The notes under the pieces are model-generated. The model worked only from the letters and a program-made list of their open reading frames with translations, was not told the DNA's origin and ran no database searches. DNA of 64,000 nucleotides from assembly GCA_000004695.1 (NCBI GenBank), contig CM000151.3:384001-448000 (forward strand). The letters are read 5' to 3'. Shown here one piece after another: positions 1 through 8,448 of the stretch; within the stretch, counting starts at the first letter, position 1; the number at the start of each line of letters is the position of its first letter. The position numbers were made by a program, and so were the translations under genes. Source of the stretch: Dictyostelium discoideum. Its lineage: Eukaryota.

Positions 1-873
1 TAGGAAGTCTATTTTCTTAAGCATTATGCTTGAGAGGATTGAGGATTTTTTTAATCTCCATCTGCGCTTGTTCATCTGTATGTTGGGTAGAGTGAAAGTG
101 GTTGATAGGAAGTTGTGATCTGATAGAGGTATGTCGTTAATTTTTGGGGGGATTAGGTTCCTTAAGTATAATTGGCTGTAGTTGATTAAGCTATTGTTAA
201 GGTATATTCTGTCTAGTCTCCTTTCCAAGATTCTTGTGAGGTTATTGTTTGTGTTGTGTATCGTTCTTGAGAAGGTGGGTCTTTTATTTAGTTGGTCCAT
301 ATCCATTAGGTTATTTGAAATTCTGATGGCTTCGATTACTGTGGCCATCTCATCTGGGGATTGTGTTGTCAGGTTGCCTTGGTCATCATTTGATGTGTGA
401 TTGTCATTGAAGTCTAAACAGTTGAAGTCGCCTGCTATGATGTCGATGTTTTTATTAGGGTTAGACGTTAGGTTGTGGTATTGGTTGTTGAAGTGTTTAT
501 TTAGTGTTGATGCTAGTGTTTTTCTTTTATCAGGTTGGGCCGGGGCGTATATGGCCAAGATTCTCGTTGTGGTATCTTTTATTAGAATGTCTGATATTAT
601 TAGTCTACCTTCTATTATGAATATTGGTGAGAGTTTTATGTTTTGGTTGTTGTGGTTTAGTATTCCTATTCCGTTGCCTCTGTTGGTTGCGCTAATGATG
701 GAGCCAGGAAATAGCTGGTGTGCTTGTGTTGCGTCGGCGTTGAGTTCATTGACTATGGTTAGTGCCAATGAGTTTGGGGGGGATTGGGATTTGATAAAGT
801 CTGTTTTGTTTTTGAAGGAGGTGTCAGTACCCCAACCTCTGACATTCCATTGGTTGATTTTGATTACTACCAT
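1..873 (-). CDS. Retrotransposon ORF2, N-terminal AP-endonuclease domain; partial, continues beyond position 1
   Basis: Hand translation of the minus strand from ATG (plus 873-871) gives MVVIKINQWNVRGWGTDTSFKNKTDFIKSQS... with no stop codon seen through the first ~290 codons. The track shows no ORF here because the ORF is open-ended. The plus-strand ORFs 182-883 are hydrophobic antisense artefacts. Confidence 0.65.
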   Translation of the reverse strand, partial: MVVIKINQWNVRGWGTDTSFKNKTDFIKSQSPPNSLALTIVNELNADATQAHQLFPGSIISATNRGNGIGILNHNNQNIKLSPIFIIEGRLIISDILIKDTTTRILAIYAPAQPDKRKTLASTLNKHFNNQYHNLTSNPNKNIDIIAGDFNCLDFNDNHTSNDDQGNLTTQSPDEMATVIEAIRISNNLMDMDQLNKRPTFSRTIHNTNNNLTRILERRLDRIYLNNSLINYSQLYLRNLIPPKINDIPLSDHNFLSTTFTLPNIQMNKRRWRLKKSSILSSIMLKKIDFL

Positions 874-1730
874 TATGAGATGATATCGATCTCCTCTTGG
901 GAGTCGTATAGCTGCGGTTTGGATGGTGAAGGGTAGATACTCTCTATGAAGCTCTCAATGATTCCTTTCCTTTCTTTATTGACAGGTGTCTTAGGGGTGG
1001 ATGGGATGTAAGGGTTGCTTCTGTTTATTGTTGGTGAGAGTTGGGTGACCTCGTTGTTTGAGTGGATTTCCTCGTTCTTGCGTTTATGTGATGGAGGGAT
1101 GTTTGGTGTCTTCTCTCTGTTTTCCGAGGATGAATGGATGTTAGTGCTCGTTTTGTTGGTATTGTCTTTTTGGATGGCGTTGGATGTTGTGGTAGTGGTT
1201 GTGGTGGGTTTGACAGATTGAGATTCTGCTTGGTTTTTGGGGGGAAGAGGTTGAGAGGACTTTTTTGATTGGGCTTTTTTCTCTTGGGTTGATTGTTTAT
1301 CAGACTGATTGTTTGCTGGGTCATTTGTTTGTTGTTGTGGTTTTGGTTGAGAGGATTTGATTGCTATCCTGTTTTGGGTGTTGGGAGGATCATCTGTCAT
1401 CTCATCTTCTAATGGTTCTTCCGTGTTGTTTGACTCTACTTTCTTATTTTTCTTTTGTGAGGAGTAGGTTTTGGTGGCCGTTCTGATGGTAAAGTTGGCG
1501 ATTTCTGTATTGTGTTGGCCAGATTTCATTTGATCGCCTATTTTGCATTCTATTAGACCGAATACTAGGAGGTGGTAGGTGGAGTATGTAGTATGGTATA
1601 TTGCATAGGGTATTTCTTCTGCAAAGGCAGTTTTGATGAGGGCGTCCACTATTCCTGCCTTTTCTTTTGGAATTCTTACTCTTCCTGTGAGGACGTGGTA
1701 GTCTCTACTGGAGGTGATGAAAGTTCCCAA
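873..1730 (-). CDS. Retrotransposon ORF1, C-terminal part (Thr/Gln/Asn-rich, basic)
   Basis: 285-aa minus-strand ORF with GC-richer codon usage. It ends 1 nt overlapping the ORF2 start. It is in a different frame from the upstream 120-aa ORF, so ORF1 looks split by a frameshift. Confidence 0.5.
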   Translation of the reverse strand: MGTFITSSRDYHVLTGRVRIPKEKAGIVDALIKTAFAEEIPYAIYHTTYSTYHLLVFGLIECKIGDQMKSGQHNTEIANFTIRTATKTYSSQKKNKKVESNNTEEPLEDEMTDDPPNTQNRIAIKSSQPKPQQQTNDPANNQSDKQSTQEKKAQSKKSSQPLPPKNQAESQSVKPTTTTTTTSNAIQKDNTNKTSTNIHSSSENREKTPNIPPSHKRKNEEIHSNNEVTQLSPTINRSNPYIPSTPKTPVNKERKGIIESFIESIYPSPSKPQLYDSQEEIDIIS

Positions 1731-1753
1731 TTTGCTTCTATCTCTAATGATAT

Positions 1754-2116
1754 TTAGGAGAGATTGTCGTTTTTAATCATCAGGTGTATCATTTTTCTAG
1801 TTCCTTTGCCTATGTATATCTTGTCGATTGGGATATCGTAGTTTGAGAGTGTTTTTCTCATTTCTTCTAACCCCATGAGATCCATTTTGGGGAATTCGAG
1901 TGTAATTGGGTAGAATCCGTTGTTTTTCTCGTAGGTTGAGAGCGCAGTCATGTTCAATATGGTCTCGCAGTATTTGGAGATGTCTTTGAGGCCTATTGAT
2001 AATTTGGGGTAGGTCTCCTTTATCTCTGCTGTTTTTGTGGAGAATTCCTTAATGAAGTTCTCTGATGCCTCGTCCATATGGGGGGCCATTTTAGCCGCGT
2101 CTGCGTAGGAATTCAT
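1754..2116 (-). CDS. Retrotransposon ORF1, N-terminal part, separated from the 285-aa ORF by a frameshift/stop
   Basis: 120-aa minus-strand ORF immediately upstream of 873-1730. (2116-1730) mod 3 = 2, so the two are in different frames. This suggests a degenerate ORF1 or a programmed frameshift. Confidence 0.45.
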   Translation of the reverse strand: MNSYADAAKMAPHMDEASENFIKEFSTKTAEIKETYPKLSIGLKDISKYCETILNMTALSTYEKNNGFYPITLEFPKMDLMGLEEMRKTLSNYDIPIDKIYIGKGTRKMIHLMIKNDNLS

Positions 2117-2241
2117 CTCGATGGGATTCCTTTGAATCGGCGATTTGGTAAGTTAGATCTGTAGATCGTGGTGGATTGGTGATTTTTTTTGAAAGATTGG
2201 TTAAAATTGACCGAGATTAAGGATAGAAAAGGATGAATTAC

Positions 2242-2359
2242 TTTTCACGTGTATCTTGTATCCTCTTGATCGCGGTACGGTTTTTTTTTCTCTTTTTATT
2301 GAAGTAACATTTTTCACGTGTATCTTGTATCCTCTTGATCGCGGTACGGTTTTTTTTTT
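2242..2359. repeat. Two 48-bp direct repeats at the 5' end of the TRE3-like element, separated by about 21 bp
   Basis: ttttcacgtgtatcttgtatcctcttgatcgcggtacggttttttttt occurs at 2242-2289 and again at 2311-2359. This resembles the repeated 5' modules of Dictyostelium TRE elements. Confidence 0.7.
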
Positions 2360-2365
2360 AAGTTT

Positions 2366-2397
<32 letters not shown>

Positions 2398-2406
2398 CAG
2401 CAACTT

Positions 2407-2514: not shown

Positions 2515-2782
2515 TGTAATAAAGCTTGTTAGCTTTATAAATATATATAATTAATAATTATATAATTGAATAATACTTTGTTATCTTTATTTAATATTAA
2601 TTTATATTTATAATATTCAATATTGTTTATAAAATTATTCTTTAGTATTTATATTATTTATAATGAGTTGACAGTATTATTATTATTATTATTATTATAT
2701 TATTTAAATGTGTGTCAACTATAATTAGTAATGTAATATGCATATTTAATATCTATTAATTTTATAGAGTAACTTTATTACA
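2515..2782 (-). repeat. 3' LTR (268 bp) with terminal inverted repeat TGTAATAAAG...CTTTATTACA
   Basis: Near-identical to 4887-5154. It starts TG and ends CA, with the PPT adjacent on the minus strand. Confidence 0.85.
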
Positions 2783-3379
2783 TATCCCCCCCTTTTAGTT
2801 GAAAAAAATTTTTCAATCTTTTAATATAAAACACATCATGATTTTTAATATTATCCAATACTAATTTGAATTTTAAATCGCTAACTCTCTCATGTACTTT
2901 GAAAAGACCTTCCCAAGATTTATTGAGCTTTACTGGACCAACAGTGGATTGTAAATAGACATAATCTCCTACTTGAATATTTGAACGAGAAACTTTTTTA
3001 TTAATTTGTGATAATTGGTCTTTACCAAGATTATCCTTAATGAGACAAGGACGTTTGAGGTTATTATTTACAATTTGGGCGAAATTATGAGCAAAATCTA
3101 ATCTTGATAAATTTGTACATGGATTTCTTATTAATGGTTGAATTGAGGTTATTTGTGATTTAATTATTGAATTCTCTGTTTGATTTAATGATATTGATTT
3201 TAATGGTAAATTTGATGTTATTGGTGAATCTATTGGTTCTTGGAATAAGAATTCTGGAATATCGTAATCTATTGGTAGTTGTTCTTCAATAGTTGGATAC
3301 GATTTGATTGATAGTATATGATGAGAATTAAAATTTTCAATTAAATGATCAGTATCTGTTAATAATTCTGATTTTGATG

Positions 3380-3410
<31 letters not shown>

Positions 3411-4705
3411 TGAATAATCAGATACTGTTTTAAATATAGTTTGTATACATGGTTGGGTTTCTTTAGATATTAATTTGGTACCAACATTGAATTCAAGATT
3501 CTTAATGATCATTTCTTTAAAATCAATGACTAAATTTAATCCAATTATTGTATCAATGCCAAATATACAATCAATTGATGTATCATTATCTTTAACAACA
3601 TTAACTTTAACTCTAGCGAATGCTTTACCTAATTTAATTGTTGTGTTACTTATTCCAATGATTTTGATTTCATTATTTGATGCTGATTTAACAGAATATT
3701 GTTTATTTTCAATCTTTAATTTTAACTTTTTAGCAATACTTTCCCAAACAATAGTAAGTGATGAACCAGTATCAATCAAACCTCTAACATTTTTATTATT
3801 TATTAATAAAGCTGCATTCATACTATCTATTCCAATTGAATTAATTGTACTATTATTAACCATTGTAATTGCATTAGTGCTATGATTATTATATGATTGT
3901 TTATTCTCATTATAATTATTCTTTTTATCTTTAGACCAACACTCTTGAATTACATGACCTTTCTTTTTGCAATATTTACAAAATTTTGTGATTGAATTTA
4001 CTTGATTTTGTGGTGCTTTATAAGGGGATGATTGTGGTGACATTTGTGGTGATCGATTATAATATTGATTTTTAAAAATTGGTGTTGAAATTTCTTCAGA
4101 TTCAATTGATTGTTGTTCGTTTTGAGATGTAACATATTGAGGGGATGTTGCAGAATAACCAGAACCCGAACCTAGATATCTTTGATTACCAAATTCTTGC
4201 AACGTCTTTGCAACTAATTGACCAGTGTACATTGATCTACCTTTGATACGAATTGAACCATCTTCACAAGACTTTGCAATATCTATTGCTCTTTTTAATG
4301 ATTTTGGTGCACATTTTGTAATTTCAATACCCAATTCAGTACCAACAGCTGAATAAAACAATTGTATTTTAAACTTTTCTGAAATATCAACTGCTGAACA
4401 TTTTGATAGAAATTTACCAATTAATATATCTAATGTATTGTATTTATATTCTCCCAACTTTGTTAATTCTGTTAAATCATCACTATCACCAATATCAAAA
4501 GCATCTTTAAGATCTTCAATTATCTCCATTGCTGTTAAGTCTGTATCCAATGTTGCGGCATATTCCAATGCATTGTTTCTTAGTTTTCTAATAATATCAG
4601 CTTTCGATATTTCCTCGCCATGAATTAGTAAGAGTAAGTGTTTGAATTTACGAAATGATAAACCTTTTCCATCACCCGAAAAAATTACGTTTTCATTATT
4701 ACTCA

Positions 4706-4706
<1 letters not shown>
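2778..4706 (-). CDS. Gag-Pro polyprotein of the LTR element: capsid-like region, CCHC zinc knuckle, retroviral-type aspartic protease
   Basis: Contains CKYCKKKGHVIQECWSKD (Cx2Cx4Hx4C) and LIDTGSSLTIVW (the D-T/S-G active site of retropepsin). The ORF end runs through the PPT into the LTR edge. This fits an internal deletion that fuses the truncated pol to the LTR. Confidence 0.75.
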
Positions 4707-4776
<70 letters not shown>

Positions 4777-4886
4777 TATTAAATTAAATTTAATCTAATG
4801 TAAAATTTTAATTGATTGAATAATTTGATAACTTTATATTTATAGTATATTTTTTTTTTTTTTTTTTGAAAGACGATGTCGCCAAA

Positions 4887-5154
4887 TGTAATAAAGCTTG
4901 TTAGCTTTATAAATATATATAATTAATAATTATATAATTGAATAATACTTTGTTATCTTTATTTAATATTAATTTATATTTATAATATTCAATATTGTTT
5001 ATAAAATTATTCTTTAGTATTTATATTATTTATAATGAGTTGACAGTATTATTATTATTATTATTATTATATTATTTAAATGTGTGTCAACTATAATTAG
5101 TAATGTAATATGCATATTTAATATCTATTAATTTTATAGAGTAACTTTATTACA
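4887..5154 (-). repeat. 5' LTR (268 bp) of the same element
   Basis: Direct repeat of 2515-2782. A putative PBS TTTGGCGACATCGTC lies immediately internal on the minus strand (plus 4870-4886). Confidence 0.85.
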
Positions 5155-5412
5155 CCGTAATAATTATTAAAAATAGTTTAAAAGAATCATCCAAGTTGGC
5201 ACTTTTTTGTAATTACAAAAATTATATATGGGGACTCATATAAAATAATATGAACAATTTTGAAAAGTGCACTTAGATAGTTTTTATAATAACTAAATTT
5301 TTTTTTTTTTTTTTTGAGATATTTCATTATTTCCGAAATAATTTTTAAAATAAATTTTTTTTTTTTTTTTTCTTTTTTAAAAAAAAAACAATGGATAGAG
5401 ATAAAAATTATA

Positions 5413-8448
<3,036 letters not shown>

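Follow-up and report, generated by a model that had tools for sequence, protein, structure and literature searches.

A probable non-autonomous Gag-protease subfamily of the tRNA-gene-targeted retrotransposon DGLT-A in Dictyostelium discoideum

How does a retrotransposon that lacks reverse transcriptase and an integrase core come to lie, with intact ends, beside a tRNA gene? This question was raised by an element at 2515-5154 of a 64-kb window of the Dictyostelium discoideum genome (i.e. the whole stretch of DNA analysed, positions 384,001 to 448,000 of contig CM000151.3 in assembly GCA_000004695.1). An original prediction made from the letters of this window had described the element as a recent, non-autonomous insertion that retains only gag and protease between long terminal repeats (LTRs), and that may be mobilised in trans as a parasite of full-length copies. 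The present analysis indicates that it very probably belongs to a non-autonomous subfamily of DGLT-A, as one of several copies presumably mobilised by the enzymes of longer elements. DGLT-A is a Ty3/gypsy LTR retrotransposon with a consensus of 5054 bp, 265-bp LTRs and one Gag-Pol open reading frame (ORF) of 1437 amino acids (aa), and integrates 13-33 bp upstream of tRNA genes (Spaller et al. 2016, Kling et al. 2018; PMC5006619, PMC6101501). Coordinates are positions within the window unless another copy is named. The element is read on the minus strand with its 5' LTR at 4887-5154, which corrects the orientation originally assumed.

A comparison of repeats within the window showed that the direct repeats at 2515-2782 and 4887-5154 match at 268 of 268 positions, and both start with TGTAA and end with TTACA, bearing out the predicted pair of full-length LTRs with TG..CA termini. 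The 5' LTR (4887-5154, minus strand; TGTAATAAAG...CTTTATTACA) and the 3' LTR (2515-2782, minus strand), each of 268 bp and 100% identical, enclose an internal region of 2104 bp (2783-4886), giving a whole element of ~2.6 kb. A reading of the repeats as a pair of solo LTRs was rejected. The predicted 4-bp target-site duplication was read directly as CCGT (ACGG in the sense of the element) at 5155-5158, on the 5' side, and at 2511-2514, on the 3' side. The target is a tRNA-Val(AAC) gene at 2412-2486 on the minus strand (ARAGORN; Rfam tRNA, 57.9 bits), which is oriented like the element and begins 28 nt from the LTR end. The putative primer-binding site (PBS) of the prediction proved to be TGGCGACATCGTCTTTC at 4868-4884 (minus strand), separated from the 5' LTR by 2 nt (i.e. 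'TT'), and its polypurine tract (PPT), AAAAGGGGGGGATA at 2783-2797 (minus strand), abuts the 3' LTR. Downstream of the PBS, an untranslated leader with many A/T homopolymer runs (4707-4867, minus strand) precedes a single ORF of 642 aa plus stop (2778-4706, minus strand), which covers 1926 of the 2104 internal bases. In assembly GCA_054883475.1 this locus is identical except for the lengths of homopolymer runs in the leader.

These features identify the LTRs as those of a known element. Both the PBS string and its 2-bp offset equal those published for DGLT-A (PMC5006619), the LTR length of 268 bp compares with a published 265 bp, the termini are of the same TG..CA type and the PPT lies at the right LTR. 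A CX2CX4HX4C knuckle and a protease follow one another in one ORF, the integrase C-terminal GPY/F module (diverged in the window copy) is present without a chromodomain, the duplication has 4 bp, and the tRNA distance of 28 nt falls inside the published range. The cis signals are conserved with the long copies (the first 13 nt of the PBS are conserved throughout the subfamilies, and the PPT is kept in all of them), whereas the remaining LTR diverges by up to 25%. In contrast to autonomous DGLT-A, the element is ~2.4 kb shorter and its ORF lacks RT (reverse transcriptase), RNase H and the zinc-finger and catalytic core of integrase; a 63-codon linker fills the gap, and the usual stop codon has been lost. 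As no match to RT, RNase H or integrase core (i.e. rve) was obtained and homology to a long copy, L008, is broken, the element was classified as a DGLT-A derivative and not as autonomous DGLT-A.

A search for other copies with the same deletion, as the prediction had proposed, yielded a family of nine short copies with the same boundaries, comprising five of types A and B in the AX4 lineage (i.e. the window copy, L001, and four more) and four of type C in assembly GCA_054859385.1. The AX4 gene names of the short copies were taken from a protein cluster look-up. Type A includes the window copy (target-site duplication ACGG, 28 nt from Val(AAC)), L002 (DDB_G0279931), which is 98.8% identical over its full length including the junctions (TTTC, 14 nt from Ile(AAU)), L009 (DDB_G0287455; 99.3% to the window copy), whose 5' LTR end is cut by a later insertion, and L010 (DDB_G0276009; 99.0%), whose 3' LTR end is cut likewise. 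Type B is represented by L003 (DDB_G0277283; 9562-12179), a mosaic that shares the junctions (CTAA, 14 nt from Leu(UAA)). Type C, a sister subfamily in another strain, comprises L004 (TCCG, 12 nt from Leu(CAA)), L005 (CATA, 14 nt from Leu(AAG)), L011 (AAAT, 15 nt from Gly(GCC)) and L012 (TTAT, 22 nt from Leu(AAG)). Identity within type C is 99.8-100%, as compared to 76% between type C and the window copy. Both ends are intact in seven of the nine, and each of these has a private 4-bp duplication and a different tRNA gene 12-28 nt downstream; some insertions have the orientation of the tRNA gene and others the opposite one. The LTRs of the window copy are 99.6% identical to those of L003 and 87% identical to those of L008. 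No substitutions were observed between the LTRs of any pair compared (7/7; two long copies and the short copies at the window, L002, L003, L004 and L011), L004 having one 4-nt indel.

As the boundaries are shared, the duplications private and the tRNA neighbours different, the short form must have been copied by transposition. On this evidence the deleted form has transposed at least nine times, for which enzymes supplied in trans are needed. The idea of a non-autonomous, trans-mobilised parasite is thereby supported by the presence of the short form at several independent tRNA loci. The insertions that truncate L009 (at ~2583) and L010 (at ~5145) end in poly(A) or poly(T) and probably represent TRE elements that arrived later at these tRNA-proximal sites; the 3-kb flanks of the two copies contained no tRNA gene.

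The window ORF is identical to D. discoideum AX4 DDB_G0271456 (XP_645785.1, UniRef100_Q55B27). Its first part, aa 1 to ~290 (3837-4706, minus strand), is called Gag here on account of its position, the knuckle CKYCKKKGHVIQEC (aa 243-256, 3939-3980), which gives weak Pfam zf-CCHC matches, and the DGLT-A literature. Pfam recognised no Gag domain in the ORF, and an AlphaFold2 model from a six-sequence alignment (mean pLDDT 30.5) lent no structural support to this label. The second part is a retroviral-type aspartic protease, aa ~291-419 (3450-3836, minus strand), with matches to Asp_protease_2 (8.4e-11) and gag-asp_proteas (9.7e-10) at aa 301-385, an active-site D-T-G at aa 312-314 (3765-3773) and sequence matches in the PDB to retroviral-like aspartic protease 1 and DDI1. 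Pfam searches of the ORF detected no RT, RNase H, integrase core (rve) or chromodomain, and the small ORFs in other frames of the element had no Pfam matches, in line with the predicted ~2.1-kb interior devoid of these enzymes. A tblastn search across the 64-kb window found no further DGLT-A coding sequence. In AX4 and UniProt the short-element ORFs are labelled as hypothetical proteins or as 'Peptidase A2 domain-containing protein', and gene predictions for newer assemblies place spurious introns near their 3' ends.

The claim that only gag and protease remain was upheld for the loss of the catalytic parts of Pol but not for the word 'only', as an RT leader remnant and an integrase tail are kept in frame. 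Longer DGLT-A copies from other strains were used for comparison, namely L006, limited to a 5' part, and L008, of 4.24 kb with an ORF of 1176 aa. Strong homology to the long copies spans element positions 1-1726, up to the end of the protease, with ~79% aa identity between the Gag-protease parts of the window copy and L006. It is followed, at aa 420-469 (3300-3449, minus strand), by what remains of the RT N-terminal leader in diverged form. The local DNA similarity of this part to L006 and L008 is significant, its score being reached in none of 1000 shuffles in one comparison and none of 300 in another, and in a protein alignment it ends near VYTPPYK of the long copies. The in-frame linker, aa 470-532 (63 codons; 3114-3299, minus strand), is 100% identical in L002. 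In protein and DNA comparisons with shuffle controls it had no significant match to the beginning of RT in L006, to the L008 interior of 1.97 kb or to the Dictyostelium dimigraforme integrase. Homology to long DGLT-A resumes at 7232/7233 of L008 with the last ~110 residues of integrase (i.e. the SH3-like GPY/F module), which form the tail of the window ORF, aa 532-642 (2781-3113, minus strand), together with a 7-codon extension up to the LTR. At the DNA level the window tail differs from the canonical one by 26%; it has GLF in place of GPF (WEGLFKV) and gives a weak, sub-threshold match to SH3_Tf2-1 (18.9 bits, aa 593-634). The type-B tail attains the Pfam cut-off for Integrase_p58_C and carries the published Dd_DGLT-A GPY/F motif IQTGDFVYLHTPYSQTSIGPKKFYKPWRGPFKVQEK. 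The predicted read-through of the ORF into the 3' LTR was confirmed, but it extends for 5 nt only, the TAA stop occupying LTR positions 3-5. In other copies the usual stop is 21 nt ahead of the LTR, and the late stop of the window copy is explained by a 1-nt homopolymer length difference that removed it.

The boundaries of the deletion bear on its age. In types A, B and C, strong homology to L008 stops at 5255/5256 and restarts at 7232/7233, to within one nucleotide. As this junction is common to subfamilies that are merely 76% identical in DNA, the deletion is not recent, although the window insertion, which had been predicted to be recent, does itself look young. An identical 3' boundary in all three types could also be produced if RT, when copying full-length DGLT-A RNA, repeatedly made one and the same template jump at a hotspot, so that each short copy arose de novo, in the manner of defective-interfering genomes and with no lineage of its own, and the Gag of type A is indeed nearer to that of the long L006 than to that of the short type C. 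This recurrent origin is nevertheless judged very unlikely. The RT leader remnant and linker are strongly diverged or unmatched in the long copies, yet 97-100% identical among types A and B, and the linkers of A and C share a private homologous segment of 50 nt (p=0.002). In type C this segment falls inside a 42-45-nt unit that encodes TTTTIQPI(V/I)NNPP and occurs as three tandem repeats in the linker (L004, 11385-11518), with the frame kept. Moreover, the type A protease has a synonymous divergence (dS) of 0.38 from the short type C as compared to 1.04 from the long L006, the reverse of the pattern in Gag. Because derived features of leader, linker and protease are shared, the short form was copied as such, and we read these comparisons as suggesting one old deletion lineage with later exchange of segments with long elements.

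Every cis signal for replication is retained in the short form (i.e. LTRs with conserved ends, PBS and PPT), and a life cycle can be proposed on this basis. The 5' LTR (4887-5154, minus strand) would drive a transcript from LTR to LTR, which would be translated into a protein of Gag, protease and tail and then packaged, probably by its own Gag. RT and RNase H from a longer DGLT-A in the same particle would prime reverse transcription at the PBS and PPT, and the integrase of that longer copy would insert the DNA upstream of a tRNA gene, generating the 4-bp duplication. Targeting of DGLT-A to tRNA genes has been tied to contacts of RNase H and integrase with the TFIIIC subunit Tfc4 (Kling et al. 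2018), and the short form may be directed by the same contacts. We infer that the helper is long DGLT-A and that the element's own Gag-protease is used in cis. Mobilisation by the machinery of another retroelement, e.g. Skipper, might be entertained because no intact DGLT-A helper is known in AX4 and two Skipper-1 copies with intact ORFs have been described in the literature. It is thought highly improbable, as the LTR termini, PBS and PPT are of DGLT-A type and conserved with long DGLT-A, all insertions lie at the distance upstream of tRNA genes that is typical of DGLT-A, most Skipper elements use a polypyrimidine tract and not this PBS, and Skipper-1 is reported not to target tRNA genes.

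The functional state of the ORF was assessed from substitution rates. Ratios of non-synonymous to synonymous divergence (dN/dS) between lineages were 0.17-0.23 for Gag, 0.13-0.35 for protease, ~1 for leader and linker, and 0.4-0.5 for the tail. By these ratios Gag and protease evolve under purifying selection and the linker neutrally. In the nine short copies the frame is uninterrupted from Gag through to the tail, barring a late frameshift in one. Intact ORFs under purifying selection, annotated in AX4 as ordinary protein genes, would also be expected of a domesticated host gene family in which Gag-protease ORFs had been co-opted and the LTRs were left over. Such co-option is extremely doubtful, as the copies are bounded by substitution-free LTR pairs with PBS, PPT, a private duplication and a tRNA neighbour, near-identical copies occur at different loci, and the sets of copies differ by strain among the annotated proteins compared (A/B in the AX4 lineage, C in GCA_054859385.1). 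That the element is a dead one-off relic, its extra copies due to segmental duplication or ectopic recombination, has next to no probability, for although the literature calls all AX4 DGLT-A copies incomplete and possibly immobile (PMC5006619), the flanks differ up to the LTR ends with no shared flank seen beyond the duplication, and both the 4-bp duplication and the tRNA neighbour change from one intact copy to the next, with either orientation represented. Segmental duplication in particular was ruled out by the differing flanks and private duplications.

Contact between short and long elements is suggested by L003, which was examined by a piecewise three-way alignment. This copy follows type A at essentially all informative sites outside two patches, at ~910-1095 (mid-Gag) and 2040-2350 (the whole tail), where 30 of 45 and 77 of 94 informative sites, respectively, follow the long type. 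Such a mosaic is the pattern expected of template switching between co-packaged short and long RNAs and may have arisen in this way, with gene conversion as an alternative. Together with the LTR pairs free of substitutions and the identical copies at separate loci, it provides indirect evidence for mobilisation in trans.

A further element with Gag and protease only was encountered in the sister species D. dimigraforme (L013, 5590-7660), just upstream of a tRNA-Met gene. Its ORF has 414 aa and no integrase tail, and the stop is directly followed by the PPT AAAAGGGGGATTG and by an LTR beginning TGTAATGAAG; its two LTRs share no more than 82% identity across 123 nt. By these features it is a separate, older deletion, and loss of Pol with retention of Gag-protease has accordingly occurred more than once in the clade.

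Several points weigh against mobilisation of a recently active short form by long DGLT-A. Identical LTRs could be explained in part by the low mutation rate of the species, and gene conversion in place of recent insertion could likewise account for some of this identity. The mosaic of L003 could stem from gene conversion between genomic copies and not from co-packaging. Part of the low dN/dS may predate the short form and date from time spent in long elements, since the Gag of type A is nearer to L006 and its protease nearer to type C. Lastly, none of the nine AX4 copies with internal sequence is full-length, and the family may no longer amplify (PMC5006619). Protein searches for full-length D. 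discoideum DGLT-A returned fragments only, and the protein sets searched gave only the AX4 integrase fragment DDB_G0286503 and, elsewhere, the 4.24-kb copy without RNase H. The long copies found are hence all incomplete (i.e. L008, 4.24 kb and without RNase H; L006, truncated; and DDB_G0286503).

Among these, L008 (3602-7845 in GCA_054859385.1) is a DGLT-A of 4244 bp with identical 255-bp LTRs and the duplication ATTT, located 13 nt upstream of a tRNA-Ala(AGC) gene. Gag, protease and the full integrase are encoded in its 1176-aa ORF, RT only in part, and no match to RNase H was obtained. By this structure L008 is a further deletion derivative of a different kind, and likewise a young-looking one.

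A two-component system was also considered, in which the short Gag-protease elements would be one half of DGLT-A and supply surplus capsid and protease while the long copies supply RT, RNase H and integrase. In DGLT-A, Gag and Pol are encoded in one fused ORF with no frameshift to give an excess of Gag, and for this reason a separate Gag-protease lineage, maintained by selection, could provide the surplus. This arrangement is regarded as unlikely. If it were true, the lineage would have to be of long standing, given that subfamilies of 76% identity have the junction in common and that a Gag-protease derivative exists in D. dimigraforme. It may then have outlived any intact autonomous partner in AX4, its activity being sustained by complementation among individually defective copies.

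Comparison with known systems places the short form among non-autonomous LTR elements with coding capacity. LARD and TRIM elements are bounded by LTRs, lack RT and integrase, are mobilised in trans and have no coding capacity. The window element differs from them in its 642-aa ORF, the Gag-protease part of which has a dN/dS well below 1. Ty3 of Saccharomyces cerevisiae is of the same Ty3/gypsy type as DGLT-A and inserts ~15 bp upstream of tRNA genes; the knuckle-protease region of the window ORF gives a weak sequence match to Ty3 Gag-Pol (E=0.052). Ty3 is, however, autonomous, has separate GAG3 and POL3 frames and is targeted via contacts of integrase with TFIIIB, whereas for DGLT-A contacts of RNase H and of the N-terminal part of integrase with Tfc4 have been reported. 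In function the element resembles the plant TR-GAG elements (terminal-repeat retrotransposons with a GAG domain), which have an LTR pair, one Gag ORF, no polymerase or integrase and multiple copies, and whose enzymes are believed to come from an autonomous relative (PMC8704663); transposition of a TR-GAG element has been shown in the Arabidopsis ddm1 mutant (PMC8704663). The Dictyostelium element shares the LTRs, the single structural-protein ORF and the multiple copies. It has an LTR pair, PBS, PPT and intact Gag ORF without catalytic domains of RT or integrase, and the same internal structure recurs in several copies at independent sites. Unlike TR-GAG elements, it has retained a protease as well as the C-terminal domain of integrase, which is kept in frame. 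Its source is a Ty3/gypsy element in which Gag and Pol are fused into one ORF, its insertions are strictly targeted to tRNA genes, and its host is an amoebozoan and not a plant.

The surroundings of the element contain further repeats. Beyond the tRNA-Val gene, window positions 1-2400 carry minus-strand ORFs of 120 aa (2116->1754) and 285 aa (1730->873), together with a perfect 48-nt direct repeat (2242-2289 and 2311-2358) and a long A-run (2361-2397). At the same locus in the other assembly (L001), RVT_1 genes follow on from these ORFs. From its sequence this region may be the 5' portion of a non-LTR retrotransposon, in which case the tRNA-Val gene would have DGLT-A on its upstream side and a candidate TRE3-like element on its downstream side. 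On the other side of the element, the neighbouring 1011-codon ORF (5401-8436) contains a 9-nt tandem repeat, GGTAGTGTT, at 6358-6417, which is an ordinary coding microsatellite.

DGLT-A serves as a model of the way in which safe sites at tRNA genes are located by retrotransposons of compact genomes, and its copies in the laboratory strain have so far been described as incomplete and possibly extinct. The AX4 copies are listed in the literature merely as 'not full-length', with no named non-autonomous subfamily (PMC5006619; the original 2001 description was outside the scope), and a literature search returned no paper for the five AX4 gene identifiers. Of the nine AX4 copies reported to have internal sequence, five or more represent one discrete short subfamily that preserves its ORF. 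Five AX4 genes annotated as 'hypothetical protein' (i.e. DDB_G0271456, G0279931, G0277283, G0276009 and G0287455) can be flagged as transposon ORFs, and with its 2.6 kb the element could serve as a natural substrate when DGLT-A targeting is assayed by mobilisation in trans. The range of non-autonomous LTR elements that retain Gag, known until now mainly from plants, is extended to the Amoebozoa. For DGLT-A itself, these copies point to activity recent enough that every LTR pair examined lacks substitutions, and to a non-autonomous lineage that may carry much of the survival of the family.

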